From a virus, in UHGV virus genome UHGV-0227276: a stretch of DNA of 23,483 bases; one strand, 5' to 3'. How positions within the stretch are numbered: position 1 is the first letter of the stretch; each line of letters begins with the position of its first letter. A program made the position numbers and the translations under genes. Of this stretch, positions 5,242-23,384 are shown one piece after another. The notes under the pieces were generated by a model. The model did no database searches, had not been told where the DNA came from, and worked only from the letters and a program-made list of their open reading frames with translations.

Positions 5242-5751
5242 TTAAATTTCTGGTAGTTTGGGCCAGTTAATATCAGGGGCTGTGCTGATATCTATTGCTG
5301 CTACCACGTCGATATAGTCAAGAACGGAATCGAGCTTTACTGTTTCTTCCGCAGTTAATTTTCTTCCCGCCTGCAATTTTAGTTGAATCAGAACAATGGA
5401 AGACATGGCATCATCAATCAGTGACTGGCGTTGCAGTTCAGCCCCTTCCACTGCTGCGTTATGTTGCGCTTTGGTATCCGTCACCCATTTCTCACCATCC
5501 CACTTATCGTATGGTGTTAACGGAGCAATAGTGGTTGTCTTTTCAGGGTAATCTCCCGGCACTGTGATTTCTTTTGAGTCCCCCGTTTCGGTGTTATAGA
5601 CGATTTCACCGCGATGGTCTGGCACATATTCCCATGATCTCAAATCCAGAGTTCGACAAGACACATAACCTGACTTATATGAACCAGGAGCATCTAAACA
5701 CGCTCTGATTCCATCACCAACGCTACATACACGAGGGAGTATTGGTAACAC
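5242..5751 (-). CDS. G: tail fibre assembly protein (Tfa/gpG-like), 5'-rearranged: residues 18-169 are Tfa-like, the first 17 codons derive from an inverted segment
   Basis: C-terminal ...TAEETVKLDSVLDYIDVVAAIDISTAPDINWPKLPEI and central SWEYVPDHRGEIVYN resemble lambda Tfa as I recall it; codons 10-16 of the annotated N-terminus are encoded by a 20-bp inverted-repeat copy. Confidence 0.7.
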   Translation of the reverse strand: MLPILPRVCSVGDGIRACLDAPGSYKSGYVSCRTLDLRSWEYVPDHRGEIVYNTETGDSKEITVPGDYPEKTTTIAPLTPYDKWDGEKWVTDTKAQHNAAVEGAELQRQSLIDDAMSSIVLIQLKLQAGRKLTAEETVKLDSVLDYIDVVAAIDISTAPDINWPKLPEI

Positions 5752-5812
5752 AGGTGGGAGCGAAACCCGTCCACGAAATATTGCATTTAACTATATCGTG
5801 AGAGCTGCGTAA
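5723..5812 (+). other. displaced 3' end of tail fibre gene H (29 codons plus TAA), on the opposite strand to H
   Basis: Plus-strand frame continues from the repeat (LIPSPT) into LHTRGSIGNTGGSETRPRNIAFNYIVRAA and ends TAATG, overlapping the start of the Tfa N-terminal fragment. Confidence 0.55.
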
Positions 5813-5952
5813 TGGATAAAGCCGTATTAAATAGCGAACTTATTGCCACGAAGGCGGGGAATATTACCGTCTATAACTATGATGGTGAAACACGGGAATA
5901 TATTTCTGAATCAACTGAATATCTTGCTGTTGGCGTCGGTATTCCCGCACAT
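5812..5952 (+). pseudogene. detached 5' fragment (47 codons) of the tail fibre assembly gene, on the opposite strand to G
   Basis: MDKAVLNSELIATKAGNITVYNYDGETREYISESTEYLAVGVGIPAH resembles the Tfa N-terminus (lambda Tfa ...[32 protein letters not shown], from memory); joining it to G codon 18 onward restores an in-frame 200-aa Tfa. Confidence 0.6.
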
Positions 5953-7489
5953 TCGTTGGTGATGGAATCAGAGTCCCTCCGGAATCGGCAGCATCAAGCC
6001 CCCGGCCTTGCGTATATGCTTTTCTGAAGATTGCCGCCAGTTCCCATTCCTCTTTTGAATCATACCCATCGTTGGCTACAACCATATGGCGGTGTTTTTC
6101 CAGCATTCCAGCCTGAAGGCTCAATAAAGCACGCCCAGCATCAATACCACGCCCATCATCCCAGCCACGAATAAACTCACCACGTAAATCAGGCAATTTA
6201 TTTGTCGGATAAACCTTTGCCAGTTTGGGATATTCTTCAGCCGAAAAAGCCGCTCCGTTGCATTTCAGCCAGCCTGTCGGTGGAGTGGCAGAAGGCCACG
6301 GAACAGGGACACCAACAGGTAATGCAGAGCCATCCCCTAAACCAAGATAATCAAGAACGCCCTGTGCGCTGGGCCTGCTAAGAATGGTACGCCCAACACT
6401 TGTCAGTGCAGTTAAGGCAGCTCGATCTTCCCCTGTAAAATAAGGGAGTTTATCTTTTGATGTAGAAAGCCCTGCCAACGCCGTTAAAGTAGCATCCTTT
6501 GGCTGCTTCCCCGCAAGGGAGTTAGTTATTGTCGTGGCAAAGTTCGGATCATTCCCCAGCGCCGCTGCCAGTTCGTTCAGCGTATCCAGTGCCGCAGGTG
6601 CAGAACCCACCATTGCTGCAATTGCCGATTTCACAAAAGCGGTAGTGGCAATCTGTGTATTGTTGACCGACTGCGCCGCCGTGGGAGCTGTTGGCGTTCC
6701 GGTGAGTGCCGGACTCGACAGCGGCGCTTTTTGTGCCAGTGCATTGTTAATGGTGGTACTGAATTTCGGATCATTGTTAATGGCTGCGGCTATTTCTTTC
6801 AGCGTGTCCAGGGTGGCTGGCGCACCATTAATAAGAGCCGTCAGAGCCGCCTGAACAAACGCGGTGGTCGCAATCTGCGTGGTGTTATTCCCTGCTGCTG
6901 GCGTTGGCGCTTTGGGTGTCCCGGTAAACGTCGGACTTTCTTTGGGTGCATACTGTGAATGCGGGTCCGGTGCGGCAAGATGTTTTGCCATCAGGTCATC
7001 CACGTACACCTTCAGCTCCAGTACCTTATCATCCACATACTTGCGGGTTGCCAGCACGACGGCAGGGTCGATTTTCAGGGTGATATTGTCCGTGCTGCTG
7101 GTTATCAGCACCATGCGCACGGTCTGGGTACGTCCGCTGCCTTCAGCCAGTTGCGGCTTATAGCTTTCCGGGCAGTTTCCCACGGCAATCAATGCCCCGG
7201 ACTCATCAAACAGGCCCACTTCACGTATCCACCAACCGCCCTCGTTTTCAGGGATCACCTGTTCAGCAATAATCTGGCTGCTGTTCTGCGGGTCGATATA
7301 GAGCATATTCAGCGCAGCCCGGCGTTTCTCATTTACCAATGCTGTCTGCTTGGCGTCCGGCGTTGGCAATGTTCCGCCGCCATCGCCGACCGCCATATGG
7401 GTAATTTTTAAAGGCACACCGAGCGCGGCGGCGCTGGCAAGTTTCGCCGCGCCAATATCCGTCAGCAGGGTATAAAATTTTGTGCTCAT
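5864..7489 (-). CDS. H: tail fibre protein (P2 gpH-like), 541 aa; last 29 codons are antisense of the detached tfa fragment
   Basis: N-terminus MSTKFYTLLTDIGAAKLASAAALGVPLKITHMAVGDGGG; internal tandem repeats; C-terminal WLKCNGAAFSAEEYPKLA...LPDLRGEFIRGWDDGRG tail-fibre domain; start overlaps the I stop (ATGA). Confidence 0.85.
   Translation of the reverse strand: MSTKFYTLLTDIGAAKLASAAALGVPLKITHMAVGDGGGTLPTPDAKQTALVNEKRRAALNMLYIDPQNSSQIIAEQVIPENEGGWWIREVGLFDESGALIAVGNCPESYKPQLAEGSGRTQTVRMVLITSSTDNITLKIDPAVVLATRKYVDDKVLELKVYVDDLMAKHLAAPDPHSQYAPKESPTFTGTPKAPTPAAGNNTTQIATTAFVQAALTALINGAPATLDTLKEIAAAINNDPKFSTTINNALAQKAPLSSPALTGTPTAPTAAQSVNNTQIATTAFVKSAIAAMVGSAPAALDTLNELAAALGNDPNFATTITNSLAGKQPKDATLTALAGLSTSKDKLPYFTGEDRAALTALTSVGRTILSRPSAQGVLDYLGLGDGSALPVGVPVPWPSATPPTGWLKCNGAAFSAEEYPKLAKVYPTNKLPDLRGEFIRGWDDGRGIDAGRALLSLQAGMLEKHRHMVVANDGYDSKEEWELAAIFRKAYTQGRGLDAADSGGTLIPSPTNVREYRRQQQDIQLIQKYIPVFHHHSYRR
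6470..6934 (-). repeat. diverged tandem duplication of about 76 codons inside H
   Basis: PTFTGTPKAPTPAAGNNTTQIATTAFVQAALTALINGAPATLDTLKEIAAAINNDPKFSTT... is followed by PALTGTPTAPTAAQSVNNTQIATTAFVKSAIAAMVGSAPAALDTLNELAAALGNDPNFATT... Confidence 0.7.
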
Positions 7490-8091
7490 GGATTCACTCT
7501 CATTGTGTCAATAACATGGACCGCCCCGCCTTCATGCGCGGTGCCGCCGGAAATAATTGTTTCGTTGATATACGGATAGATCGTGATTTCTTCGCCAAGA
7601 TAGCTGGCGGCTCCCACCCAATGCGGGCCGCTGGTCTGCAGGTTGATGGACATGCCGATCATGTGACGGCTACATGGTTTGGCATCGCTTATCAGTCGCT
7701 CAAGTTCCAGATAGGTATCTTCAGTGATGCCCTGGTCCTGCACGCCGATATCCAGACGAAACGTGCCCGGTGTCTCTCCGGTCTGCCACCACTCAATAAT
7801 GCGGATCAGAAAGCCGAACGGCTCCACCACCCGCCGCACGGCACTGGTGGTCCCTTTATGCTGATGAATATAAAAAGCATCCTTCACCACCTGGCGCTTG
7901 ACGCTTTCTGTCCAGCCCTCATCCCAGCGATCCACAGAGAACGCCCAGGCGAGATAAGGTAGGAAACTGACCGGACAGGTTGCCGGATTCCACAAGTCAC
8001 GCAGCGGCACCTGCAGATCAGAAATCCCGCTACAGGTCTGCGCCAGTCGGCGCTCCAGTGAAGTTGAACCCGGTGGCAGCAGACTATTCAT
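7486..8091 (-). CDS. I: baseplate assembly / tail protein I (P2 gpI-like), 201 aa
   Basis: ORF between J and H with overlapping stop/start codons, as in P2 V-W-J-I-H-G. Confidence 0.85.
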   Translation of the reverse strand: MNSLLPPGSTSLERRLAQTCSGISDLQVPLRDLWNPATCPVSFLPYLAWAFSVDRWDEGWTESVKRQVVKDAFYIHQHKGTTSAVRRVVEPFGFLIRIIEWWQTGETPGTFRLDIGVQDQGITEDTYLELERLISDAKPCSRHMIGMSINLQTSGPHWVGAASYLGEEITIYPYINETIISGGTAHEGGAVHVIDTMRVNP

Positions 8092-8992
8092 CCGTTCCTC
8101 CGTTGGTTACGCTCCACTGCGTACATGATGCGGCCTGTGTTTTGTTCAGGACCACATCAGCCAGCGGTGAAGCCAGCTCCACACGTTGAACCCCCTCAAC
8201 ATGCAGCGCGGCAAAAATGGCACTACGGCGAATATCCCGACCAAGCCGCGTCTGACTGGCGATGTACTTCTGCAGGCTGGCTTTTGCCGCTGCCATTACC
8301 GGCTCTGCTTCGGGCCCCGGATAGAGAAAAATGGTGGCTTCCACGCGGTACGGGATGATTTCTGCGCTGCGAACCGTAAGACGGTCAGCCACCGGGCGGA
8401 CGTTCTCACTGTTCAGGGCTTTCTCCACCACATCCAGCAGGTCTTTTTCTGCTGTTCCGTCGCCTTCGCGGCTAAGGACAGTCAGCACCACCTCTGCAGG
8501 TGCCGGGCTGGTTGCACTGGCATCCGCCACCCGACCGTCGGCGCTTCGGGCATGAAATTCATAAGCTGCAGTTGGCCCCGCAACTGAAAGCCCTTCAAAG
8601 GCTGCAGGCACACGCAGGCGTAACGCTTCATCACTTTCCATCACTGCCGCAACGGGCGGCACAGCGTCATTATCAGCAGGCGTCACCGTCAGGCGTTTCA
8701 CGTTGTAATTGGCAGCGAGCTGGTCCAGATCGCTCCCTATGGCATAAGCCGCCATCACCGCCTGCGCGGCTTCGTTAATGCGCTGGCGCAGAAGCAACTC
8801 ACGATAAGCGTTCTCCTGCAACAATTTGGTGACGGGTTCAGATTCCAGTTCCAGCGTGCGGATCACTGCTTCCTGCTCATCTTTCGGATGAAGCGCCACA
8901 AATTCTGCCTTGCGTTCGGCAAGCAGCGTCTCAAAGTCCGGCACATCCACAATTTGCGGCGCAGGCAACTGCGAAAGGTCAATCACTGCCAT
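8084..8992 (-). CDS. J: baseplate assembly protein J (P2 gpJ-like), about 302 aa
   Basis: ORF 8084..9031; likely true start is the internal MAVIDLSQLPAPQIVDVPDFETLLAERKAEF at 8992, giving the P2 J size; overlaps W and I. Confidence 0.85.
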   Translation of the reverse strand: MAVIDLSQLPAPQIVDVPDFETLLAERKAEFVALHPKDEQEAVIRTLELESEPVTKLLQENAYRELLLRQRINEAAQAVMAAYAIGSDLDQLAANYNVKRLTVTPADNDAVPPVAAVMESDEALRLRVPAAFEGLSVAGPTAAYEFHARSADGRVADASATSPAPAEVVLTVLSREGDGTAEKDLLDVVEKALNSENVRPVADRLTVRSAEIIPYRVEATIFLYPGPEAEPVMAAAKASLQKYIASQTRLGRDIRRSAIFAALHVEGVQRVELASPLADVVLNKTQAASCTQWSVTNGGTDE

Positions 8993-9338
8993 TCTCTGCT
9001 CCTGTTGATACGGAAAGGGACACAGGCACACCGTTATTCCGCCGCCCGGTCAGCTCCACCACCATTGAACCGTCAAAATTGCTGTTGATGGTGATGGAAT
9101 CCAGCGTCAGCCGTGGCTCCCAGCGACTCAGCGCCACATACACTGCCGACATGACCTGCAGGCGTAACGCCGGATTTTGTGGCTGATCTATTAAAGCCGA
9201 CAGCAGGGAACCATATTCCCGGCGGGCAATGCGGCTACCCTGCGGTGTCAGCAGAATGTCCCGCACCGACTGGCGCAGATGGTCAATATCAGTAATAGCT
9301 TTACCGCTGGTATTGTTCATCCCGATATAAAGCGTCAT
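8979..9338 (-). CDS. W: baseplate protein W (P2 gpW-like), 119 aa
   Basis: Small ORF between V and J; MTLYIGMNNTSGKAITDIDHLRQSVRDILLTPQGSRIARREYGS... Confidence 0.85.
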   Translation of the reverse strand: MTLYIGMNNTSGKAITDIDHLRQSVRDILLTPQGSRIARREYGSLLSALIDQPQNPALRLQVMSAVYVALSRWEPRLTLDSITINSNFDGSMVVELTGRRNNGVPVSLSVSTGAENGSD

Positions 9339-9913
9339 ACCGGGCCTCCGGTTGTGTCGCCGCCTTTCAGGACGCCAGTATGCTGATGCGCATCAACCAC
9401 GATCCCGTTAGAACTCATTGCACCGCCGCCCTGGGTAACGCCACCATTGATCACCACTTCGCTGTTAATACGCGTGCGGTCAGCCTCCAGCACAAACTCA
9501 CTGGTTTTCAGGGTGATGTTGTCGGCAGCCTCAATGACCATGGATTTGATGCCCCTGACATACCAGCGCCCGGTGGCGGGTTCGTATTCAAACCAGCCAC
9601 CGTCAGGATGTTCTGTCACGCAGGCGTCCGCCGACGTCGACGGTGGTGCGAACTGATTCGAATAGACAGCGGGCAGCGCAAAGGCGGTCTCCAGATTGCC
9701 GCCCAGACTCAGCAGCACCACCTGCTCACCTTCCGATGGTCGCCACCATGTCCGGGCATTCCCGGCACGCAGGGTCAGCCAGCTGATCCAGTTGGTTTCG
9801 AGGTCGCCAGTTTTCACCCGGCAAAGCCAGTTTTCCCGGTCCACTTCGGTGACTACACCTGTGCGGATCAGGTTGGTGATAAGGCGCATGATTTCGGTTA
9901 ATTGTGCGTTCAT
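9335..9913 (-). CDS. V: baseplate spike / assembly protein V (P2 gpV-like), 192 aa
   Basis: First gene of the V-W-J-I-H-G operon; MNAQLTEIMRLITNLIRTGVVTEVDRENW... Confidence 0.85.
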   Translation of the reverse strand: MNAQLTEIMRLITNLIRTGVVTEVDRENWLCRVKTGDLETNWISWLTLRAGNARTWWRPSEGEQVVLLSLGGNLETAFALPAVYSNQFAPPSTSADACVTEHPDGGWFEYEPATGRWYVRGIKSMVIEAADNITLKTSEFVLEADRTRINSEVVINGGVTQGGGAMSSNGIVVDAHQHTGVLKGGDTTGGPV

Positions 9914-9959
9914 TCACTTAATTTGCCACGCTACCGATTCTCAGTCAGATGGTGTAAAT

Positions 9960-9977
9960 TGTTCTGCATATGGCACA
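9960..9977 (-). promoter_or_regulatory. candidate Ogr-type late-promoter site (TGT-N12-ACA) for the V operon
   Basis: TGT tctgcatatggc ACA dyad about 55 bp upstream of the V start; shares the ATGGC-ACA half with the FI site. Confidence 0.4.
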
Positions 9978-10701
9978 ATTTACATGTAAAATGGAAAAAT
10001 TAATGGCTAATAAATCTTCCTTTACCACTAAAAAAAATGACATTAAACCTGATCCGATAATTGCAATATTAGAGAAAAGAGCCAAATCAGCCCGAATCAC
10101 CATGCTTGTTTTTATCTACTTAATATTTACAGCTATGTTGCTTGTCTTTAGTGGCGTAGTAATGATGAAATCAAAAAATGACAACCCTTTCAAATCTTTC
10201 ATTAATATGCTTTATACTCCAAATGGAGTTGATTTTAGTAATTTCATTCCCAAAACCTCCCAAAACAATATCACATTACCTCTAAAAAAAGAGGAAAAAA
10301 GAGTAGAGGAAGGGACAAATCAAGACGAATTGGAACAATTCGTAAAAAGCATAAACATTAAGTCAAGAATAATGGATTCATATCTTTCATGGAAAAGCCC
10401 ATCACAAGAACTAGCAGAATCTGTTGCATCGATAGTGATTAGCCTAACGCTCTTAATTTTTGTCGGCTTCGTGATGAAAGCATCAATAATGTTTATTAAA
10501 TATCACATGCAGATTGGGAATGATTATGATAACCAAAAAATAGCCTATTTATTAAGCAAAGGAGATATTGATGTTTTCGAAAAAACATTAGGCTGCTTAA
10601 GAACACATAATATCACATTCGAAAAAACTCCGAATTTACCTCAAGAAAAAATAATTGATGGCTTAATAAATGCCTTGAATATATCAAAGAAAAACCAATA
10701 A
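9970..10701 (+). CDS. hypothetical two-transmembrane-helix protein (AT-rich moron between V and S), up to 243 aa; start uncertain (alternatives 9991 or 10003)
   Basis: Only plus-strand gene in a minus-strand late block; strongly AT-rich; predicted TM helices ITMLVFIYLIFTAMLLVFSGVVMM and VASIVISLTLLIFVGFVMKASIMFI; annotated first ATG overlaps the V promoter dyad. Confidence 0.6.
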   Translation: MAQFTCKMEKLMANKSSFTTKKNDIKPDPIIAILEKRAKSARITMLVFIYLIFTAMLLVFSGVVMMKSKNDNPFKSFINMLYTPNGVDFSNFIPKTSQNNITLPLKKEEKRVEEGTNQDELEQFVKSINIKSRIMDSYLSWKSPSQELAESVASIVISLTLLIFVGFVMKASIMFIKYHMQIGNDYDNQKIAYLLSKGDIDVFEKTLGCLRTHNITFEKTPNLPQEKIIDGLINALNISKKNQ

Positions 10702-10739
10702 CAACATCACTGATGTAAATATATTACTATATAGAAAAC

Positions 10740-11186
10740 CTAATTATGCAACCAGTTAAATAGAATTTCTTTCAAGACAGATGGCACCAGGTCATTTACC
10801 CCTAATAGCCGCCGTGCAATGTAACGGACCTCCGGTCCTTTACGGCTGACGCGATCACGTAAGCCGTAGTGATGAACACGGGCAATACGCTGCACCTTAC
10901 CTTCAAACTGCACGCTGGCAGAGTCGGCGCTGGCGGCAGTTTTCAGGTATTTTGTGGTGCGCAGCTTTGCAAACATCTGACGTTTGATGCGCCCCTTTTT
11001 ACTGCGTGCTGTTACCCGTCGCGGTTCATAGCTGCTGCCGTCAGGGTTGCGCTGCATCCTGATATTCTGCTGCTGTGTCCGGCGCAGTTCCTGCGCCAGC
11101 TGGCGCATCATGCGGCTTCTCGTGGCTGGCTCCAGATTCGCCAGCAAGGCACTCAGCCAGTCGTCCACCTTCTGCAGTTCAGCCAC
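10740..11186 (-). CDS. S: tail completion protein S (P2 gpS-like), 148 aa
   Basis: MAELQKVDDWLSALLANLEPATRSRMMRQLAQELRRTQQQN...; overlaps R stop; position R-S-V as in P2. Confidence 0.8.
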   Translation of the reverse strand: MAELQKVDDWLSALLANLEPATRSRMMRQLAQELRRTQQQNIRMQRNPDGSSYEPRRVTARSKKGRIKRQMFAKLRTTKYLKTAASADSASVQFEGKVQRIARVHHYGLRDRVSRKGPEVRYIARRLLGVNDLVPSVLKEILFNWLHN

Positions 11187-11631
11187 GTTTCACCGTCCAC
11201 ATTTCTTCAGGTTCATCAGGTTCCGCTACCGCTTCAACGTTCGACACACTGCCGTCAGTGCTGACCACCACACGCTCCGTCAGCTGCAGGTTAAGGCTGA
11301 TATCACAGACATCGTTGCGCAGAATATCCACCTCAAAGGTGAATAGTTTTTCCCGTAACGCCGGGTTATTGATGGCATCGGGCTGGTTATCACGCAGCCA
11401 CAGCAAAACCGGGGCCATCAGCAGATTCTGGTCGCCGCTGAAATCCTCAATCACCACGTTGAGGGTATAACGGTACTCCCATGACATGGAGCTGGCCCCC
11501 GTGGCAACCAGCGAACCGTTATCCACAAACAGATGCAGTTTGTCCGGGTTATTGCGGACATAAGGCACTGCTTTATTGAGGGCGTGGCGCAGGGACTGTG
11601 GTTTGTTCACTGTTTCGCTCCTGACACGCAA
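11179..11631 (-). CDS. R: tail completion protein R (P2 gpR-like), 150 aa
   Basis: ORF between the lysis cassette and S, as in P2. Confidence 0.8.
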   Translation of the reverse strand: MRVRSETVNKPQSLRHALNKAVPYVRNNPDKLHLFVDNGSLVATGASSMSWEYRYTLNVVIEDFSGDQNLLMAPVLLWLRDNQPDAINNPALREKLFTFEVDILRNDVCDISLNLQLTERVVVSTDGSVSNVEAVAEPDEPEEMWTVKRG

Positions 11632-11863
11632 TAATCATGTCCACTTTGTCTGCACAGACCGCCCAGGCGGCCTCCGTTTCATCCAGCAATGCGTTCAGAT
11701 CACCGTTAGTGCGCGGCGCTGCCTGCTCCAGCCGACACGGCGTCACTCGCGGACAACCACTGACGGTAAGCTGCACCTCCGGTGAGTGCCGGACGTTCCC
11801 GCAGCCGGATAATGTCAGCAGGCAAAGGAGTATCAGCCCAGCGGCGTAAATCCTCGTTCTCAC
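11573..11863 (-). CDS. lysC: outer-membrane spanin lipoprotein (LysC/Rz1-like), 96 aa, embedded in the +1 frame of lysB and overlapping R
   Basis: Signal peptide with lipobox LLTLSG-C (MRTRIYAAGLILLCLLTLSGCGN), Pro-rich C-terminus; starts inside lysB. Confidence 0.6.
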   Translation of the reverse strand: MRTRIYAAGLILLCLLTLSGCGNVRHSPEVQLTVSGCPRVTPCRLEQAAPRTNGDLNALLDETEAAWAVCADKVDMIIACQERNSEQTTVPAPRPQ

Positions 11864-12134
11864 GTTTCAGTTCCTCGATCCGGCGTTGTCGTTGTCTCAG
11901 CAGTGCGCTGGTCTGTTCTGCTTCGGCGTAGAGCCGCGCCTGCTCCCGGTTGTTGGTTTCAGCCAGAATGGACAGACCGATCAGCTGGCTGTTTTTCTTC
12001 GTCAGTTCTTGCGCTTTACTTTTCAGCGCCGCGCGCTGCGTTTCGATGGTGTGGCTGGCGCTGTTAAGCCGCCACGACTGCCAGCCCAGCGCAACTAGTG
12101 CCAGCGCCACCACTACTGCCAGCGCACGCGTCAT
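11706..12134 (-). CDS. lysB: inner-membrane spanin (LysB/Rz-like), 142 aa
   Basis: N-terminal TM helix ALAVVVALALVALGW followed by a charged coiled-coil region; directly downstream of the endolysin. Confidence 0.7.
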   Translation of the reverse strand: MTRALAVVVALALVALGWQSWRLNSASHTIETQRAALKSKAQELTKKNSQLIGLSILAETNNREQARLYAEAEQTSALLRQRQRRIEELKRENEDLRRWADTPLPADIIRLRERPALTGGAAYRQWLSASDAVSAGAGSAAH

Positions 12135-12646
12135 AGTCCAGCTCCTTTAAGGCACCAGGCCATCTCCCGCGCACGGCGGTTATCCAGCCCCTGATTAAAC
12201 ACACCTCTCACATAAACCCAGCGCGGCAACTGTCGGCATGCATCCGCCCAGCGCCGCTGATTGAGCAATTTCACCAGCGTGGAACTACAGGCATTGCCCG
12301 TCCCCACGTTGAAGGCAAACGACACCGTAGCGTCATACACCTTCTGCGGCGGCTGTTGCTTCACACACCTTTCCAACGCCCGCTCCACTCGTAGCACGTT
12401 GGAGATCAGCCCTTCAGCTGCCTGTCGTTCCGTAATAATTTTGCCGGGAATGACGCCCGACGTATTACCAATGCCGTCGGTCCAGACACCCGCGCTGCAC
12501 TGATACGGCTGCAGACGACAGCCTTCATAATCAGCGATCAGTTTCAGTCCCTCCTCGGAGGTGTGAAGCTGCTGAAACCCCGGCAGCGTGGCAGCAATAG
12601 CCAGCACGGCCCCGACAAGGCAGCGTTTAACGATTGATGGATTCAT
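12131..12646 (-). CDS. K: endolysin, lysozyme-like (P2 gpK-like), 171 aa
   Basis: EGCRLQPYQCSAGVWTDGIGNT matches the E-x8-(D/C)-x5-T catalytic spacing of T4-type lysozymes; hydrophobic N-terminus. Confidence 0.85.
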   Translation of the reverse strand: MNPSIVKRCLVGAVLAIAATLPGFQQLHTSEEGLKLIADYEGCRLQPYQCSAGVWTDGIGNTSGVIPGKIITERQAAEGLISNVLRVERALERCVKQQPPQKVYDATVSFAFNVGTGNACSSTLVKLLNQRRWADACRQLPRWVYVRGVFNQGLDNRRAREMAWCLKGAGL

Positions 12647-12842
12647 AGTCCTCCCGCGAGATCTGCCCGTCGCGCAGAAGCTGGTAGGCTTTGTGTTTGT
12701 AGTACCAGTTGATAGCCAGCATCAGCACACCGATCATCAGGCCGCCCAGCGTTGAGGCATCCTTGATGGACAAATCGCCCAGCCAGGCCAGCACGACGGC
12801 GATGCAATACGTGATAAAAGCGCTGATTCGCTCAAGCGTCAT
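12627..12842 (-). CDS. holin (P2 gpY position), 71 aa
   Basis: Two hydrophobic helices (ISAFITYCIAVVLAWLG, LGGLMIGVLMLAINWYY) and a charged C-terminus; immediately upstream of the endolysin. Confidence 0.6.
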   Translation of the reverse strand: MTLERISAFITYCIAVVLAWLGDLSIKDASTLGGLMIGVLMLAINWYYKHKAYQLLRDGQISREDYESINR

Positions 12843-12845
12843 AAT

Positions 12846-13049
12846 TCAGTCCCATAGCTGGACGGTCTGTACGGTGGTGGTTGTCGGAATGTCCGGCAGC
12901 TCCACCTGCAGCCCGTGAGGTAAAAAGGGGCCGTATTCGGCAAGCCCCGGATTTGCCTTCAGTACCTGCTCCGTGACACCCTGCGTGCGCCCGTAATGAC
13001 GCCAGCAAAGTGCGTCCACCGTGTCATACTGATGCGCGCGCACTTTCAT
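12846..13049 (-). CDS. X: tail protein X (P2 gpX-like), 67 aa
   Basis: 67-aa ORF between L and the holin, same size and position as P2 X. Confidence 0.75.
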   Translation of the reverse strand: MKVRAHQYDTVDALCWRHYGRTQGVTEQVLKANPGLAEYGPFLPHGLQVELPDIPTTTTVQTVQLWD

Positions 13050-13576
13050 CAGATAAGCTCCACTGTGCAGTGCGGCGCATCCTGCACCCGGCTGATGGCC
13101 CAGCGGGCGTCACGCCATAAATCACCGCTTGCTTCCGCCAGTTCCTCGCCTCGCTTCGCACCGGATGCCGTGGCGTCATAGTCCTGGTAACGTTCGTTGA
13201 GCATGGCGCGTGCCCAGCAGTAAACCGCGTTGAAATAGTGCTGAATGCGCTCGCTTTTGCCGTCCAGTTGTTCCGCCGGGACTTCTGCCAGCGAGGCATA
13301 CCCCAGCATCTGCTGGCGTCTGCGAAACTCATACAGCTCTGCGTTGACCTCCGAAATTGCCGACAGGGCAACCTGTTTTAAACGCGGCTGCGTCACCGTG
13401 CCGTCAGTGCGCATCACACTGCGAAACTCCGACAGGTCCACATCAGGCCAGAACGGCGTATTCCTGATGATTTCCGCCTGTTCCGGTGCCTGTTCTGGCG
13501 CAACAAACTTCATGCTGCTTTCTCCTGAAATAGAGGGCGGTGGACGGGGTTTTGATGTGGCAGTGCCTTTCGCCAC
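13049..13576 (-). CDS. L: head completion protein L (P2 gpL-like), 175 aa (possible internal start at MKFVAPEQ)
   Basis: ORF downstream of terminase small subunit M, as in P2 O-N-M-L. Confidence 0.8.
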   Translation of the reverse strand: MAKGTATSKPRPPPSISGESSMKFVAPEQAPEQAEIIRNTPFWPDVDLSEFRSVMRTDGTVTQPRLKQVALSAISEVNAELYEFRRRQQMLGYASLAEVPAEQLDGKSERIQHYFNAVYCWARAMLNERYQDYDATASGAKRGEELAEASGDLWRDARWAISRVQDAPHCTVELI

Positions 13577-15337: not shown

Positions 15338-16171
15338 TCAGCAATTGGTCAGAGTGTCAGCGGGGGCGTTACCGCCTGTTGCACGCTGGCGGTAGTCCTG
15401 GCGACTGTCTTCATGACTCAGCTTGTCCACCAGTTCGTTAAAGGCGGTTTGCTGTGCCTGCAGGGCAGTCTCCAGCTCAGACAGGCGTTCTTCCTGCTCA
15501 GACAGGGATTTTTCGGTGCGTGCGCTCAGGTTCTGCTGCTCAGTGGCGACCAGCTCCACAGCCTTATGCACATCAGAGAACCGGGCGTCATCGGACTGCT
15601 CTTTTTTGGTAAACAGCGCCGTGACGCGGGCAAACAGGGACGGTTTGTCGTCCTGGATTTCTTCCAGTTCGATCACCGTTTCCTCTGCAGCGGTAAAGAG
15701 ATTGGCAGGATTCTGCTTGCGGTTTGCCAGCGGGTTATGGGCTGCACTGGCGCTGAATGTCAGCATTTCCGTACCCAGACTGGCAGGGTCATCAGTGGCA
15801 GCCAGGCCGACCAGATAGGCTTTGCCCGTATCAGCGAACTTCGGGCTGACTTCCATAGAGGTGAATAATTTCTGGCCTTTTTTCACCAGTTCCACCAGGG
15901 ACTCCGTTGGCTCAACGTCGGCATACAGCGCCATCTTGCCTGCCAGCGGACCTTCCGTGATTTCTTCAGCAAACAGCGCCGTCACCTTGCCGTAGCGGTT
16001 AAAGGTGCTGTCCGGCAGATAAGACTTGATGTGCTCAAGGTTAATCAGCGCGGTATACACCGCCGGGTTGTAGCTGGCTGCCATCTGTTCCAGCCATTCA
16101 CGCTGGATTTCGCGTCCGTCGGTGGTGGCACCTTCCACCCCGATGCGAAAACGCTTTGCTTTCACTGTCAT
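15338..16171 (-). CDS. O: capsid scaffolding protein O (P2 gpO-like), 277 aa
   Basis: MTVKAKRFRIGVEGATTDGREIQREWLEQMAASYNP...; acidic coiled-coil C-terminal half; first gene of the head operon, divergent from P. Confidence 0.85.
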   Translation of the reverse strand: MTVKAKRFRIGVEGATTDGREIQREWLEQMAASYNPAVYTALINLEHIKSYLPDSTFNRYGKVTALFAEEITEGPLAGKMALYADVEPTESLVELVKKGQKLFTSMEVSPKFADTGKAYLVGLAATDDPASLGTEMLTFSASAAHNPLANRKQNPANLFTAAEETVIELEEIQDDKPSLFARVTALFTKKEQSDDARFSDVHKAVELVATEQQNLSARTEKSLSEQEERLSELETALQAQQTAFNELVDKLSHEDSRQDYRQRATGGNAPADTLTNC

Positions 16172-16249
16172 GAGCCGTGCTCCGTTAGAAAAAACTTACT
16201 GGAGCCTTATGGTTGCGGTGATGGGGGCAGTGAAACAATGCGCGGTATT

Positions 16250-16267
16250 TGTACCGACAACCACACA
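16250..16267 (-). promoter_or_regulatory. candidate Ogr-type late-promoter site (TGT-N12-ACA) in the divergent O/P control region
   Basis: TGT accgacaaccac ACA centred about 87 bp upstream of the O start codon. Confidence 0.45.
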
Positions 16268-16313
16268 AACCGCAGGCGGGGAAAGCCTTCATTCAAGGCT
16301 GTAGGTTTGTGCC

Positions 16314-18080
16314 ATGAACACCACACTGACACCCGCAGATCTCGATCCCCGTCGGCAGGCCATGCTGCTGTACTTTCAGGGATACCGCGTAGCCCGCATT
16401 GCTGAAATGCTGGGCGAGAAAGTTGCAACCGTTCACAGCTGGAAAAAACGCGACAAGTGGGGTGACTATGGGCCGCTGGATCAGATGCAGCTCACCACCG
16501 CCGCACGCTACTGCCAGCTCATTATGAAGGAGCACAAAGAAGGGAAAGATTTCAAAGAGATTGACCTGCTGGCGCGCCAGTCGGAGCGCCATGCGCGGAT
16601 CGGCAAGTTTAACAATGGCGGCAACGAAGCCGACTTAAACCCTAACGTCGCCAACCGCAACAAAGGCCCGCGCCGTCAGCCGGAAAAGAACGTTTTCACC
16701 GATGAACAGATTGAGAAGCTGGAAGAAATCTTCCATTCCTCCATGTTCAACTACCAGCGCCACTGGTGGGAAGCCGGAAAAACCAACCGCATCCGCAACC
16801 TGCTGAAGTCACGCCAGATCGGCGCGACCTTCTATTTTGCCCGTGAAGCCCTGATTGACGCCCTGCTAACCGGGCGTAACCAGATTTTCCTTTCCGCCAG
16901 CAAGGCTCAGGCCCACGTCTTTAAGCAGTACATCATCGACTTCGCCAAAGAAGTGGAGGTGGAGCTGAAAGGCGATCCGATGGTGCTTCCTAACGGGGCC
17001 ACGCTGTACTTCCTCGGCACCAATGCCCGCACGGCCCAGAGTTACCACGGCAACCTGTATCTGGATGAATATTTCTGGATACCGAAATTCCAGGAGCTGC
17101 GCAAAGTGGCTTCCGGTATGGCTATTCACAAAAAATGGCGACAAACCTATTTTTCCACGCCATCCAGCCTGACACACAGTGCTTATCCGTTCTGGTCCGG
17201 TGCGCTGTTCAACCGAGGGCGCAACAAAGCCGATAAGGTGGACATCGACCTGTCCCACAGCAATCTGGCCCCCGGCCTGCTGTGCGCAGACGGGCAGTAC
17301 CGCCAGATAGTCACTGTGGAAGATGCGGTGCGCGGCGGCTGTAACCTGTTCGACCTCGACCAGTTGCGCATGGAGTACAGCCCGGACGAATACCAGAACC
17401 TGCTGATGTGTGAGTTCGTGGACGATCTCGCGTCTGTGTTCCCACTCAGCGAGCTGCAGGCGTGCATGGTGGACAGTTGGGAAGTCTGGACCGACTTTCA
17501 TGCACTGGCCCTGCGCCCGTTTGGCTGGCGCGAAGTGTGGATCGGATATGACCCGGCGAAAGGTACGCAGAACGGCGACAGCGCCGGATGCGTGGTGGTG
17601 GCGCCGCCAGCCGTGCCGGGCGGTAAGTTCCGCATTCTTGAGCGTCACCAGTGGCGCGGAATGGACTTCCGCGCCCAGGCTGACGCCATCAAAAAACTGA
17701 CCGAACAGTACAACGTGACCTATATCGGTATCGACTCAACCGGCGTTGGTCACGGGGTTTACGAGAACGTGAAAGCGTTTTTTCCTGCCGTCCGGGAGTT
17801 TGTCTACAACCCCAACGTTAAAAACGCCCTGGTACTCAAGGCCTACGACATTATCAGCCACCGCCGTCTGGAGTTTGACGCCGGACACACCGACATAGCG
17901 CAGTCCTTTATGGCAATCCGTCGCGCCACCACCGCCAGTGGCAACCGCCCGACCTATGAAGCCAGCCGCAGCGAAGAAGCCAGCCATGCCGATCTGGCAT
18001 GGGCAACAATGCACGCACTGTTTAACGAACCGCTGCAGGGCGAATCCGCCAATACCAGCAATATTGTGGAGATTTTTTGA
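16314..18080 (+). CDS. P: terminase large (ATPase) subunit P (P2 gpP-like), 588 aa
   Basis: MNTTLTPADLDPRRQAMLLYFQGYRVARIAEMLGE...; size matches P2 gpP; followed by the portal gene with ATGA overlap. Confidence 0.9.
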   Translation: MNTTLTPADLDPRRQAMLLYFQGYRVARIAEMLGEKVATVHSWKKRDKWGDYGPLDQMQLTTAARYCQLIMKEHKEGKDFKEIDLLARQSERHARIGKFNNGGNEADLNPNVANRNKGPRRQPEKNVFTDEQIEKLEEIFHSSMFNYQRHWWEAGKTNRIRNLLKSRQIGATFYFAREALIDALLTGRNQIFLSASKAQAHVFKQYIIDFAKEVEVELKGDPMVLPNGATLYFLGTNARTAQSYHGNLYLDEYFWIPKFQELRKVASGMAIHKKWRQTYFSTPSSLTHSAYPFWSGALFNRGRNKADKVDIDLSHSNLAPGLLCADGQYRQIVTVEDAVRGGCNLFDLDQLRMEYSPDEYQNLLMCEFVDDLASVFPLSELQACMVDSWEVWTDFHALALRPFGWREVWIGYDPAKGTQNGDSAGCVVVAPPAVPGGKFRILERHQWRGMDFRAQADAIKKLTEQYNVTYIGIDSTGVGHGVYENVKAFFPAVREFVYNPNVKNALVLKAYDIISHRRLEFDAGHTDIAQSFMAIRRATTASGNRPTYEASRSEEASHADLAWATMHALFNEPLQGESANTSNIVEIF

Positions 18081-19114
18081 TGGGAAAGAGTAAGAAGAAC
18101 CGCGCTGCGGCGACGAAACAGATCCAGCTTAAAAGTCAAACTACAGCCGAAGCATTCAGCTTCGGCGATCCCGTTCCTGTTCTGGACCGCCGAGAACTGC
18201 TGGATTATGTGGAATGCGTACAGATGGACCGCTGGTATGAGCCGCCCGTCAGCTTTGACGGACTGGCGCGCACCTTCCGCGCTGCCGTTCATCATAGTTC
18301 CCCGATTGCAGTAAAGTGCAACATTCTGACCAGCACCTACATCCCTCACCCGCTGCTCAGCCAGCAGGCTTTTTCGCGTTTTGTGCAGGACTATCTGGTA
18401 TTTGGTAACGCCTACCTGGAGAAACGCACGAACCGCTTCGGTGAAGTTATCGCCCTTGAACCTGCCTTGGCAAAATACACCCGACGCGGGTTAGACCTGG
18501 ATACCTACTGGTTTGTGCAATACGGTATGACCACGCAGCCATATCAGTTCACGAAAGGCAGCATCTTTCATCTGATGGAACCGGACATCAACCAGGAGAT
18601 CTACGGCCTGCCCGGTTATCTTTCTGCTATTCCATCCGCCCTGCTCAACGAGTCTGCCACGCTGTTCCGCCGCAAGTATTACATTAACGGCAGTCATGCA
18701 GGCTTCATCATGTATATGACCGACGCCGCGCAGAACCAGGAAGATGTGAACAACCTCCGCAACGCGATGAAAAGCGCCAAAGGCCCTGGCAACTTCCGCA
18801 ACCTGTTTATGTACTCGCCTAACGGCAAAAAGGACGGGCTTCAGATCATCCCGTTGTCAGAAGTCGCAGCGAAAGATGAATTTCTGAACATCAAGAACGT
18901 GAGCCGGGACGACATGATGGCTGCACACCGCGTACCGCCTCAGATGATGGGAATTTTGCCGAATAATGTTGGGGGGTTTGGGGATGTGGAGAAGGCAAGT
19001 CGGGTATTTGTTCGTAATGAATTAATACCTTTGCAAAAACGTTTCGAAGAATTAAATTTATGGCTAAAAAATAATATTATTACATTCAAAGAATATCAAC
19101 TATCCCTAGACTAA
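18077..19114 (+). CDS. Q: portal (capsid) protein Q (P2 gpQ-like), 345 aa; last ~30 codons AT-rich
   Basis: MMGKSKKNRAAATKQIQLKSQTTAEAFSFGDPVPVLDRRELLDYVE...; C-terminal LIPLQKRFEELNLWLKNNIITFKEYQLSLD uses AT-rich codons unlike the rest of the gene. Confidence 0.9.
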   Translation: MMGKSKKNRAAATKQIQLKSQTTAEAFSFGDPVPVLDRRELLDYVECVQMDRWYEPPVSFDGLARTFRAAVHHSSPIAVKCNILTSTYIPHPLLSQQAFSRFVQDYLVFGNAYLEKRTNRFGEVIALEPALAKYTRRGLDLDTYWFVQYGMTTQPYQFTKGSIFHLMEPDINQEIYGLPGYLSAIPSALLNESATLFRRKYYINGSHAGFIMYMTDAAQNQEDVNNLRNAMKSAKGPGNFRNLFMYSPNGKKDGLQIIPLSEVAAKDEFLNIKNVSRDDMMAAHRVPPQMMGILPNNVGGFGDVEKASRVFVRNELIPLQKRFEELNLWLKNNIITFKEYQLSLD

Positions 19115-19119
19115 TTAAT

Positions 19120-19140
19120 AACCACCTCTATGAGGTGGTT
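19120..19140. terminator. hairpin between convergent Q and cargo gene (possible bidirectional terminator)
   Basis: AACCACCTC-tat-GAGGTGGTT, a 9-bp stem directly after the Q stop codon. Confidence 0.4.
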
Positions 19141-19161
19141 AACAAGAATAAACCTAATTAA

Positions 19162-20547
19162 TTACTCATCTACTCTGATTTTTTGTTTTTTATTATTTTG
19201 AGTTAAGACATTTATGGTAATAGATGTATACGGATGAAAGTCAGGCACTATACTTTTAACCTCTCCATTTTCAAGAAAATGATGTGCTATTGAAGGAAAT
19301 AAATCAGGATCTACAGGATATTTAGCATTAGGATTATGATACATATTTAAACCTTCTGCCCATGTTTCTGTAATATCGCCTTCTTTCACTTCAAAACTAA
19401 ATGCTGCTGGATATAATGCCTCTGGGTCATGATCATGGCAGTAACCACTCCTAAATAATCTAAGGTCACTTCTTCCAAAACCAGCCAGTTTTCCCATCCG
19501 ATTAAACTTCGATATAGTACCACTATTAGAACTAAGGACGGCCGAAATATTTTCAGACTCATCCAAGAAGAAAAAGCCTGAAGGAATTTCCTTTTTCTCA
19601 AATTGATGCGATATAATTTTCTTAGTTGCTAAACTGTAACATCCATCTTCAGATTTAACATGCTCATAGCGAATACCATAAAGATACTGCCAAAGTGCAC
19701 TATGGGACCAAATCATAGAGTTTGGTTCATGAAAATCAGCAATTGCGAAAATTAAAGGATTCCCCTTAACATGTTCTAGATCCCAGTATCGAGTTTTCTT
19801 TTTCAGTTTAGAATAGAGAGAACTTCCAAATTTAATCGGCATATAATTCTCTATTTTCTCTAGCAATTCTTCCTTACTTTTAGGTTCAGATAGCATTTCA
19901 GATGATTGATTAATATCATTCCCTGTTGGATTAACCGTTACAGCTTCAATGCAAATAGTATTACCATACTTACGTGCCACATAATCAGGGGCATTAAACT
20001 GCCTATCTAGCCAAAAGTGTTCCTCTCGTAAATATGCGAAAAGATATAACTCCCATAGCCGGGCATCAAAACCTGTTGTCTGAAACTGCTCTATAAAATT
20101 CCCGTCGACATCCTCAAAATGATTCATCATTTCCTTGATTATCCCTGTTGCAGGCGACCAGTTCGCATATTTACCAAATAATGAAAAATGATGATGAAGT
20201 TTATCTGGTGTAACTATAGGTGTGAATAAATCCATTGCTTTATAAGTTTCATCACCTTGTGGAAATACTTTTACGTTTAATTTAGTATGCTTCCGCATTA
20301 ATTTCTTTAGTTTTGCTCGTGCAGAATTCATTTCTGAAACACTAGTAAATAGGTCAATACATCTATATCTCCCACTTAAGTCTCTTGCTAAAACAATACC
20401 GCTATAATCTTCATCAATTTGATCCAATAATAGTGCCCCTAGCAGGAACTCTCTCGGACTACAGTACCACTCAAACTCATAGCCTAAAAGTTCAGTATTT
20501 GGCATTCTGGTCCAATCAACAAAAGCATTAAACCTCTCTTTACTCAT
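19162..20547 (-). CDS. hypothetical 461-aa cargo protein, AT-rich, no motif recognised; candidate accessory/defense gene
   Basis: Long uninterrupted ORF in AT-rich DNA between Q and the cos-like site; no Walker A or other motif recognisable by eye. Confidence 0.6.
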   Translation of the reverse strand: MSKERFNAFVDWTRMPNTELLGYEFEWYCSPREFLLGALLLDQIDEDYSGIVLARDLSGRYRCIDLFTSVSEMNSARAKLKKLMRKHTKLNVKVFPQGDETYKAMDLFTPIVTPDKLHHHFSLFGKYANWSPATGIIKEMMNHFEDVDGNFIEQFQTTGFDARLWELYLFAYLREEHFWLDRQFNAPDYVARKYGNTICIEAVTVNPTGNDINQSSEMLSEPKSKEELLEKIENYMPIKFGSSLYSKLKKKTRYWDLEHVKGNPLIFAIADFHEPNSMIWSHSALWQYLYGIRYEHVKSEDGCYSLATKKIISHQFEKKEIPSGFFFLDESENISAVLSSNSGTISKFNRMGKLAGFGRSDLRLFRSGYCHDHDPEALYPAAFSFEVKEGDITETWAEGLNMYHNPNAKYPVDPDLFPSIAHHFLENGEVKSIVPDFHPYTSITINVLTQNNKKQKIRVDE

Positions 20548-20634
20548 TTTTTTTATATCAAGAAAGCGTTAGCTCTGTAGTGCATGTCTATGCCGCATGA
20601 GATCGCATGATCGTTTGAGGATCGTTTTTGCTAA

Positions 20635-20659
20635 GGCCCGCCAGAACTGGCGGGCTTTT
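20635..20659 (+). terminator. rho-independent terminator-like hairpin inside the repeat-bounded segment
   Basis: GGCCCGCC-agaact-GGCGGGC followed by TTTT on the plus strand. Confidence 0.45.
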
Positions 20660-20704
20660 GCGTAGATCATGCAGGTGCATGAAAACCACTACATAAAGCG
20701 GGCA

Positions 20705-20723
20705 GGCGTGGCGGGGATACGAG
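20705..20723 (+). other. cos-like motif (resembles the 19-nt cohesive end of 186/P2), in inverted polarity relative to Q/P
   Basis: GGCGTGGCGGGGA... matches the first 13 nt of the 186 cohesive end as I recall it (GGCGTGGCGGGGAAAGCAT; P2 GGCGAGGCGGGGAAAGCAC); located between A and Q where P2-like cos lies. Confidence 0.4.
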
Positions 20724-20749
20724 CGCGCGTATTTGGTCGTTACTTAGCT

Positions 20750-20824
20750 TTTTTTTATCAATAGATTAAGCTAACTTAAGTCTTTTTAGGAAAAAATATT
20801 TTTTCGTGATGAGGTAGAAAGATG
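20750..20824 (+). promoter_or_regulatory. AT-rich promoter-like region with GAGG Shine-Dalgarno and ATG (20822), currently pointing away from the cargo gene
   Basis: AT-rich tract then GAGGTAGAAAG-ATG, reading in frame into the right-hand repeat copy (MSFLDIKKMSKERFNAFVD...) and ending after 41 codons. Confidence 0.35.
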
Positions 20825-20940
20825 TCTTTTCTTGATATAAAAAAAATGAGTAAAGAGAGGTTTAATGCTTTTGTTGATTCAAGGGCTCGTTGTTCAACCT
20901 TGCTGACGCCAGAAGCAAGTTCAGACGCCAGCAACGTTTC

Positions 20941-21174
20941 TTAATGCAGCCAGCTGTCGTCTTCCCACACCTTCTGCATAATTTTCATCACTTGTTTTCT
21001 TTCTTCGTCCAGTTGCAGTCCGGTTAGTTCCACACCGTTAGAGCTACCTTTGCGAATGCGAATTACCGTTTTGGGATACAGGGGGCGCAGATTGCGGTAA
21101 AGCTCGGATTCAAGGGCGTCCAGGGTAGACTGGCTAATCTTCTGCTCTTTATCGATCATTATTTCAATGCGCAT
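20941..21174 (-). CDS. DinI-family protein (DNA-damage-inducible protein I-like), 77 aa
   Basis: MRIEIMIDKEQKISQSTLDALESELYRNLRPLYP...IMQKVWEDDSW follows the DinI pattern (E. coli DinI MRIEVTIAKTSPLPAGAIDALAGELSRR...ILQETWESADDW, from memory); GAGGTGA Shine-Dalgarno 5 nt upstream. Confidence 0.8.
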   Translation of the reverse strand: MRIEIMIDKEQKISQSTLDALESELYRNLRPLYPKTVIRIRKGSSNGVELTGLQLDEERKQVMKIMQKVWEDDSWLH

Positions 21175-21184
21175 AAAAGTCACC

Positions 21185-21373
21185 TCAGCTGATGACATCC
21201 ATTGAGCGGTTGTATTCGTGGGTTCTGATTTTTGCCATGAGTTCATCAGTCAATTCAGAAACCCACTGCAGAGCCAGCCCCTTCTCTTCATCACTACACT
21301 CACTAGCCGCTACAAGCTTAAGAAAAAAATCAATGCGCTGGAGCTTCAAAGACTCCAAAAAATAGTCCTGCAT
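21185..21373 (-). CDS. hypothetical 62-aa protein, first gene of the LexA-box operon (possible Tum-like antirepressor part)
   Basis: GGAGGAAAG Shine-Dalgarno then ATG (MQDYFLESLKLQRIDFF...); ends 10 bp before the DinI-like start. Confidence 0.45.
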   Translation of the reverse strand: MQDYFLESLKLQRIDFFLKLVAASECSDEEKGLALQWVSELTDELMAKIRTHEYNRSMDVIS

Positions 21374-21416
21374 CTTTCCTCCTATGACACCACACGCAAT
21401 GCTGTATGCATAACCA

Positions 21417-21432
21417 CTGTTTATATTTACAG
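21417..21432 (-). promoter_or_regulatory. LexA (SOS) box
   Basis: CTGTTTATATTTACAG fits CTGT-N8-ACAG with an AT-rich core, 44 nt upstream of the 62-aa gene start. Confidence 0.6.
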
Positions 21433-21526
21433 TATATAATAATCTTACTGATGTAAAACGATTTTTTACGTTCATCAGCCTGATATGCCTGGTATTATTA
21501 AGAGCACGAATTGTTAACCCGCGTAA

Positions 21527-23137
21527 TTAATACAGGTTCCGCCACTGATCATCTTCCTGCAAACGCTGGTTCCGATAGAAGATACGCAGGCCTGCTCCTG
21601 ACGGAATACTGCCTCCGCGAAGGAGTAAATCGACCTCTTTCTCGCTGCCATCAAATCCTCTGGACTTCAGCTCATACACGAGCTGCAGTCGCTGATGGTC
21701 TGTAATTCGCTGTTTGTAGTCTTTACGCCGTTTCGGTTTCACCAGGCGTAACCTTGCTGCCAGTTCCCGGCGCTCTTTTTTGCTCATACTGTGCAGGTAA
21801 TCGTGCAACTCCTTGTCATCCATGCTGGTAATGTCCGTTCTGGGGTCCCCATCAGCTGATTTATCTTTCTCCTGTTGGTTCAAATTTTCAGCAAGGGGAC
21901 AGTTATTGCCACGAGTCCAAGGGGCGCAAGCGCCCTGGTCGGCTGCCGCCTCCTGAACGTCAACGGCTTTACGAACCATTTTCCACTTCACTGCATGAGT
22001 GCAGATCTTGCCCTCTGCAATGGGTGACCAGATGCCATAAATACGAATACCGTGATCGCCATAGGCGGTCGGCTCTTCGTTGATTTCATAAGCGGTTCTG
22101 ATGAGGTGATATTTACGGGGAACCAGTACGCCGCCCTGCTTCATGATGTAGGTGGCAAAGCAACCAGCATCAGCTGCAGCCAGAATGGCATCAAGGCGCG
22201 GGTTATCCAGTACCGGCGCACCTGCTTTTTTGTCACCCTGTTGCCTTGCCGCCTGACCAGCCAGCAATCGCAGTTCACGGTAAGCCTGACGCCCCGGAAT
22301 GCCAAAGAAGCGGAATTGCTGAACACGATGCAGAGACGCCCAGGCATTAACGTATTCAGCGTTATCACGCAGAGATTTACCCGTTTCCTTGCTGATCTCG
22401 CCAGCCAGACCACGCCCGTCAATGTTCTTACTGATATATTTCGCGATGTAGCTTGTCGGCGTTCCTTTACGCGGGTTAATCAACTCAGACTTAAAGCGCG
22501 GCCCAGTGTTATTGCCCAGCTCCTCGCGGTCTTCACGGATGGCAAACTTACGCAGTAATGCAGTGATGGCGCGGCGGTCTTTTTTGCGCATAAAACACAA
22601 CAGGTGCCAGTGAACTGTACCGTCATGATGCGGCTCAGCCACCCGCACGCCATACCAGCGCAATCCGGCTTTGTGCATCGCCTTACGAAATGCAGCAAAC
22701 ATGCCGACCAGATAGTCGCTGCTTTGTCTTACCGTCGAGTTTGTCCAGGTCGGGTTGGGTCTGCCGTTATTGAGCGTGGAATGGAAACGCGACGGACAGG
22801 TGATAGTGTAGAAAACGGCGCAGTCACTGCGCATTTCCGCGATAAGCTCCAGACCTTTAACACAGGCCATCATCTCATTGCGGCGATGCGCCGGGTTGCT
22901 GCTGCTGGCGTTTACCACATCTTCCATATCCAGCGTGTCGCCGTCTTCGTTCACCAGTTCATGAGAACGGAAAAACTCCAGCGACTTACGGCGCTGCTCA
23001 CGTTTATGCATCACGGCTTCATAGCTGACATAGGGGGATGCTTTTTTGCTGACCAGGCAGACAGCACGCAACTGCTCTTCCCGCCATTCGCAACGCATCT
23101 TCCATAATTTCCGATACCACCAGTCGGCACACAACAT
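21527..23137 (-). CDS. A: replication initiation protein A (rolling-circle initiator, P2 gpA-like), 5'-truncated in this arrangement (536 aa ORF)
   Basis: VHWHLLCF (HUH-like) and YIAKY paired-tyrosine motif; reading frame closes 16 codons upstream of the annotated start, exactly at the edge of a 52-bp inverted repeat. Confidence 0.85.
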
Positions 23138-23384
23138 ACGCGTGCCTTGATGCAGCTTGTGGTGATTTGTATGCCACCGATGACGTTAAGCCAGAAGAAA
23201 TCCGCAAGACATGGGAAAAGGTGGCAGCGGAAACCCTGCGTCTGGATGTCATCCCGCCTGCGTTTGAGCAACTCCGTCGGAAAAGAAACCGCCGTAAACC
23301 CGTGCCCTATGAACTCATTCCGGGTTCGCTGGCGCGTATGTTGTGTGCCGACTGGTGGTATCGGAAATTATGGAAGATGCGTTG
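23091..23384. repeat. 52-bp perfect inverted repeats (23091-23142 and 23333-23384) flanking a 190-bp segment inside the 5' part of gene A
   Basis: Exact reverse-complement match CGCGTATGTTGTGTGCCGACTGGTGGTATCGGAAATTATGGAAGATGCGTTG; both copies encode [15 protein letters not shown] on opposite strands. Confidence 0.9.
23143..23332 (+). other. inverted fragment of the A coding region (63 codons) lying on the opposite strand to A
   Basis: Plus frame ...[52 protein letters not shown] runs in frame into the repeat-encoded [15 protein letters not shown]. Confidence 0.45.

Follow-up and report, generated by a model that had tools for sequence, protein, structure and literature searches.

How did several short segments of a prophage come to lie reversed, each of them at a different function and bounded by perfect inverted repeats? 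The question is raised by the virus genome UHGV-0227276, a stretch of 23,483 nt that was analysed as a whole and is referred to as the window. It carries a P2-family prophage, read against the direction of the late genes. An earlier note, made from the letters of this DNA, had reported three such segments, and a repeat search found them exactly as described: three inverted-repeat pairs, each 100% complementary, with arms of 20, 52 and 52 nt (5703-5722/5954-5973, 20514-20565/20828-20879 and 23091-23142/23333-23384, here sites 1-3) and with 231, 262 and 190 nt between the arms. The chance expectation is ~8.5e-6 perfect 20-nt inverted pairs at most 400 nt apart in 23.5 kb. All three events are thus upheld, but their count was short, as a fourth flipped block occupies the left edge of the window (1-102). 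The four blocks are neither conserved in P2-type phages nor a functional element of them. We infer that they probably arose while the sequence was being produced, through assembly or amplification, and not in the phage.

Geometry of the flipped blocks

Among 5,426 complete Escherichia coli genomes, the nearest relative of the window is a prophage of E. coli SCU-484 (NZ_CP051744.1; locus L001), at 99.96-100% identity. All genes of the SCU-484 prophage are intact and annotated, and each repeat arm is present there as a single copy. The anatomy of the events was worked out by BLAST and base-by-base reconstruction against this locus; coordinates prefixed with L are those of the SCU-484 locus, and those prefixed with w or given without a prefix are those of the window. 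The window departs from the SCU-484 prophage at four places, each private to the window. Outside these events, three positions differ in 23.4 kb, of which one is a homopolymer length and two are substitutions. The affected parts of the window are as follows.

1-102, left-edge event: reverse complement of L2274-2375, inside gene T, joined at w102/103 to L2477; carries the substitution w66.
5703-5722, site 1, left arm: inverted extra copy of the 20-nt flank; start of a 251-nt flipped block.
5723-5953, site 1, flipped spacer (231 bp): last 29 H codons and stop, overlapping TAATG stop/start and first ~47 Tfa codons.
5954-5973, site 1, right arm: native position, collinear with the rest of H; w5983 lies 10 nt beyond.
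20514-20565, site 2, left arm (52 nt): native position; codons 3 to ~20 of the native cargo gene (PD-T7-1).
20566-20827, site 2, flipped spacer (262 bp): first 2 cargo codons, the upstream region and the cos core 20705-20723 with its polarity reversed.
20828-20879, site 2, right arm: inverted extra copy.
23091-23142, site 3, left arm (52 nt): native position inside replication gene A.
23143-23332, site 3, flipped spacer (190 bp): ~codons 204-266 of gene A.
23333-23384, site 3, right arm: inverted extra copy.

Each site is a two-junction "copy-back", in which the sequence departs from the reference, continues as the reverse complement of a nearby block of 242-314 nt and then re-enters, skipping 0, 4 or 51 nt. 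The copied block and the departure point overlap by 20 or 52 nt, which gives rise to the perfect inverted repeat. At site 1, w5703-5953 is the reverse complement of L8077-8327 and the sequence resumes at L8308, with L8308-8327 (20 nt) duplicated in inverted orientation and 0 nt lost. At site 2, L22920 is followed by the reverse complement of L22869-23182 (w20566-20879, 314 nt) and the sequence resumes at L23187, with 52 nt duplicated and 4 bp lost next to cos at junction 20879/20880 (CTCG, L23183-23186). At site 3, L25449 is followed by the reverse complement of L25398-25639 (242 nt) and the sequence resumes at L25691; again 52 nt are duplicated, and there is an in-frame loss of 51 bp at junction 23384/23385, corresponding to 17 codons of gene A (QDQVKRLSTLVAAHMSM). 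The comparison with SCU-484 therefore reproduces precisely the proposed geometry of a flip plus inverted duplication of one flank. The flipped blocks measure 251, 314 and 242 nt and the net length changes are +20, +48 and +1 at sites 1, 2 and 3, respectively. The polarity of the duplicated flank is mixed, being right at site 1 and probably at the edge event, and left at sites 2 and 3. The arms of the three sites are mutually unrelated in sequence. The left-edge block is cut by the window edge, the implied flipped spacer being ~203 bp; its outer arm would fall outside the window.

The nearest junction is 102 nt from the start of the window and 99 nt from its end, respectively, which is unlikely for random ends and suggests that the window is a whole contig whose ends are linked to the process behind the events. 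The edge event, the 4-bp and 51-bp losses, two substitutions close to junctions and the lack of junction microhomology are all points that had not been noticed before.

Both substitutions are private. The change at w66, 34 nt from a junction, is carried by 0/1,037 matching E. coli records, and that at w5983, 30 nt from a junction and giving A503S in H, by 0/67; the w5983 allele also had 0 matches in scans of viral, genome and metagenome contigs. The chance of both lying so near to junctions is P ~5e-4. The six junctions that can be seen in full have 0, 3, 0, 0, 1 and 2 nt of microhomology, a sum of 6 compared with 4.1 +/- 2.4 for random pairs (P=0.25). As microhomology is at chance level and no latent inverted repeat was found at any breakpoint of the intact reference, the joins are effectively blunt. 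A latent quasi-palindrome guiding the switches is ruled out by the same finding at the breakpoints. In our reading, the w66 change does not convert a nearby 17-nt imperfect inverted repeat towards its partner.

The homopolymer at w10030 has eight A residues in the window (A8) and nine in SCU-484 (A9). The A8 allele opens an ORF (open reading frame) of 243 aa, and as this ORF is matched exactly on 12 independent contigs (all <2 kb), A8 is a natural allele. Thus, the window is not an edited copy of the SCU-484 record. The ORF (9970-10701, + strand) runs antisense in the block of late genes, without a match in Pfam or PADLOC; SCU-484 annotates only 179 aa for it, and the SCU-484 copy is probably frameshifted or mis-sequenced.

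Genes at the breakpoints and their repair

Each event disrupts a different essential function (T, H/Tfa, cos/cargo and A) in a prophage that is otherwise pristine. For repair, each spacer was flipped and the extra arm dropped, and the products were compared with those of SCU-484. The repaired Tfa (200 aa) and cargo protein (469 aa) are identical to their SCU-484 counterparts, and the repaired H has 541 aa with one private change, A503S. The claim that this recipe recovers the genes is therefore good for Tfa, H, the cargo gene and an open gene A, but sites 2 and 3 still miss their 4 bp and 51 bp. Flipping site 1 gives the predicted 200-aa Tfa along with the overlapping TAATG of the H stop and Tfa start; as the window stands, the end of H and the start of Tfa are on the wrong strand. 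Gene A does become open to the window edge, as had been expected, but lacks 17 residues.

The cos core GGCGTGGCGGGG has a single occurrence, at 20705-20716 on the + strand, inside the site 2 spacer. In the P2 record cosL is on the strand opposite to Q, so that canonical cos corresponds to the - strand here. Thus, cos is inverted in the window, and flipping site 2 restores the canonical polarity, in agreement with the earlier note. The native start of the cargo gene lies inside 20566-20827. The earlier description of a promoter-fed cargo gene stands with regard to the intact gene, which is recovered; its promoter is unverified, no sigma-70 consensus having been found in a scan of the intact cos-cargo intergenic region.

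The gene order of the window, and single genes within it, are as follows.

Left to right: tape-measure gene T, tail genes, sheath, Tfa, H, baseplate I/J/W/V, lysis, head.
Continuing to the right: terminase P and portal Q (both + strand), cargo gene, cos, DinI-like gene, replication gene A.
19162-20547 (- strand), cargo gene between cos and portal Q: full-length match to a PD-T7-1 defence protein (PADLOC E=1.3e-196); no Pfam domain in its product.
20941-21246 (- strand), DinI-like gene between gene A and cos: PF06183, E=1.3e-22; intact and untouched by the events.

The T ORF in the window is a chimera of 968 aa, compared with 1,025 aa in the native gene. The chimeric H ORF (5864-7489, - strand) keeps the native length of 541 aa, its last 29 residues coming from Tfa antisense; this equality of length appears to be a coincidence. 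An Rfam scan of the window gave no matches.

Arrangement in related prophages

A whole-window query identified 584 complete E. coli genomes that carry at least 80% of the prophage. The junctions or orientation of the window are found in 0/584 of these, all of which break at the same junction coordinates. Whether related prophages have the repeat-bounded arrangement as their conserved state, a possibility left by the earlier note, is thereby answered in the negative. Site-spanning queries returned thousands of related E. coli records, none of which was collinear over a junction. Of the independent contigs that encode the cargo gene (NCBI, ENA and Logan), 8/8 have the reference arrangement at site 2, and the two long ones are also of the reference type at site 3. 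Exact scans for the junction sequences gave 0 matches in viral, GTDB-representative genome and metagenome collections, and none of the four junction-dependent products (chimeric H, truncated A, chimeric T and a Tfa-N fusion ORF) is on record. Relatives at 84-100% identity have the uninverted, single-arm state throughout. On this sequence comparison, the uninverted, single-arm state is ancestral and that of the window is derived.

One related prophage has a rearrangement of its own. In NZ_OY754834.1 (L002, 2750-3356; prophage 97% identical), gene A contains an independent inversion of 609 bp with 7-9 nt of junction homology, and RefSeq annotates the gene as three pseudogene pieces. It was considered as a second copy-back case, which is ruled out, the inversion being a plain one. 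One of its breakpoints lies 12 nt from the site 3 arm, which is probably a coincidence (~10% by a rough estimate).

Beyond cos, other contigs carry a different cargo (Mrr_cat, ASCH). They cease to be homologous to the window ~15-20 nt from the right breakpoint of site 2, at a natural cargo-swap boundary, which would be relevant only in a mixed sample.

Origin of the flipped blocks

The reading that we prefer, an artefact of sequence production, draws on several features together. No known mutational spectrum comes close to four complex events with zero ordinary substitutions, the arm length is exactly 52 nt at two of the three sites, and the flipped blocks (251, 314 and 242 nt) are of the size of reads or minimum contigs. 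In addition, the only private substitutions lie near block ends, both window ends are ~100 nt from a junction, and the joins are blunt, as would be expected if an algorithm had made them. Four essential functions are lost in a prophage that is otherwise pristine, and no relative shares a junction. In the leading version, short blocks of read or minimum-contig size would have been mis-oriented during assembly and then butt-joined. The 52-nt arms would then be overlaps of fixed length left unmerged, as in a graph with k=53 and overlaps of k-1, and errors at block ends would account for the substitutions close to junctions. Mis-oriented short contigs resemble the window in the in-place flipping of blocks a few hundred bp long, in inverted duplications that stem from leftover overlaps, in the loss of small uncovered gaps and in errors near block ends, although the literature covers orientation errors generally and not this exact signature. 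In a second version, chimeric molecules from in-vitro strand switching would have come to dominate a low-input library. This recalls the chimeras of multiple displacement amplification (MDA), in which a strand-displacing polymerase changes template and nearby E. coli segments become joined in inverted orientation with intervening deletions (Lasken and Stockwell 2007, PMC1855051).

Each version also has points against it. For assembly, there are no N runs at the joins, the zero-gap abutment at site 1 has a clean-cut look that is unexpected for two independent contig ends, and one of the arms has 20 nt instead of 52. Each flipped block has a single copy in SCU-484 (3 places for 3 blocks), so that no repeat-driven break would be expected in the assembly graph of an isolate; intragenomic repeats branching the graph at the blocks were considered on this basis and are unsupported for an isolate. 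No convincing link was found between the arms (20, 52, 52), the losses (0, 4, 51) or the block sizes and an assembler k-mer or a cloning design. As for amplification, complementarity of 2 bp or more is reported for 93.5% of the MDA joins that link nearby segments in inverted orientation (PMC1855051). Here it is seen at 2/6 junctions (P=2.4e-4 under the published fraction), which is at chance level. MDA chimeras are moreover single junctions, whereas each event in the window needs two switches ~250 nt apart. Finally, substitutions close to junctions are expected from error-prone template switching in vivo as well.

That last process is the basis of a less likely explanation, which is a local burst of template switching in the DNA of one very recent lineage. 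In the four-point model (Ripley; Loytynoja and Goldman), synthesis leaves at point 1, copies from 2 to 3 as a reverse complement and returns at 4; with point 3 behind point 1, the outcome is a flipped spacer bounded by a perfect inverted repeat, all within a few hundred bp. The production of both in one step is the defining pattern of template-switch mutations (10.1101/2021.11.26.470150). All three complete sites fit exactly, since one reverse-complement copy and two switch points (dupINV/dupINVdel) reproduce each of them. The polymerase could have switched template twice per site, copying 242-314 nt, possibly in one aberrant, error-prone episode of prophage replication. If synthesis ran in the window + direction, the private substitutions would lie inside or just downstream of the switched tracts, as for error-prone synthesis; site 1 returns exactly adjacent to its entry base, and the natural A8 allele at w10030 indicates that the sequence is from a real lineage. 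The geometry is also that of human inversions flanked by copy-number variants (Collins et al. 2017, PMC5338099), to which site 1 (INVdup) and sites 2 and 3 (dupINVdel) are identical in topology. However, those are kb to Mb in size, germline and supported by reads, while the events here are of 0.2-0.3 kb, in a phage and known from sequence alone. Known template switches are tens of nt long, and the copied tracts here are 2-3 times the longest local events reported (90-125 nt). Quasi-palindromes or microhomology at the switch points are usual in that process, if not obligatory, but none is seen at any junction of the window. Four events in 23 kb with zero background divergence would need an extraordinary process restricted to the prophage, the polarity of the duplicated flank differs among sites, two arms of 52 nt would be a coincidence (by our estimate, roughly a few percent), and there is nothing comparable among the 584 related prophages. 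It is more doubtful still that the events are real and of joint origin in one catastrophic, error-prone episode of P2-type replication. This would make them a sub-kilobase bacterial analogue of chromoanasynthesis that left blunt copy-backs of ~250-300 nt, each with two switches, and point mutations close to them. A by-product would be a 52-bp-armed invertible cassette around cos and the PD-T7-1 start, which could be flipped by homologous recombination so that the gene would be active again.

Editing of a real prophage sequence in silico, either deliberate or accidental (simulated structural variants or a file-handling error), is improbable. Blunt joins, two identical arm lengths and junction products that are absent from all collections searched, while the natural alleles flanking them are present, would all fit such an origin. 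However, the net length changes follow no simple rule, and neither substitutions clustered at junctions nor window ends that hug the events are expected of a random simulator. Programmed inversion by an invertase or other recombinase, causing phase variation of the tail fibre, of cargo expression and of replication, has the lowest probability by far and is effectively refuted. Mu and P1 carry such switches (Gin and Cin) at a tail-fibre junction of the H/Tfa type, which is the position of site 1, and a short segment between inverted repeats is the hallmark that the window shares with these, with Salmonella Hin and with invertons. Site 2 even restores the full cargo gene and cos polarity when flipped with both arms kept, as the earlier note had pointed out. 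Nevertheless, invertase systems have both arms in all relatives, two functional orientations and a recombinase nearby, none of which applies here. Every relative has one arm copy and one orientation (the window orientation is seen in 0/584 genomes and 0/8 contigs), and there is no sequence relationship among the arms. If both arms are retained, flipping recovers just two of four genes (H and cargo), with Tfa stopping at residue 56 and A remaining interrupted. No recombinase gene is found within or next to the region: in the intact SCU-484 prophage, its annotation comprises only P2 structural, lysis, replication and cargo genes, onto which the window ORFs map. The view of the earlier note that this is not a classical invertase switch is thus borne out. 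We infer that site 2 is the one site that could work as a switch, and this solely through general homologous recombination between its 52-bp arms.

The consequences differ between a real event and an artefact. If real, the window would be a case of clustered, long-tract and homology-free template switching in a bacterial prophage, in which an invertible cassette around cos and a defence gene had formed in a single step. This would be of interest for the study of mutational mechanisms; the present evidence does not favour this reading. If the blocks are an artefact of sequence production, the record mis-states a well-known prophage, in which four essential functions look broken but are not. The same fault could then be flagged in other records by its signature, in which a perfect inverted repeat surrounds a flipped spacer, all relatives have a single arm, the joins are blunt and private substitutions lie ~30 nt from them.

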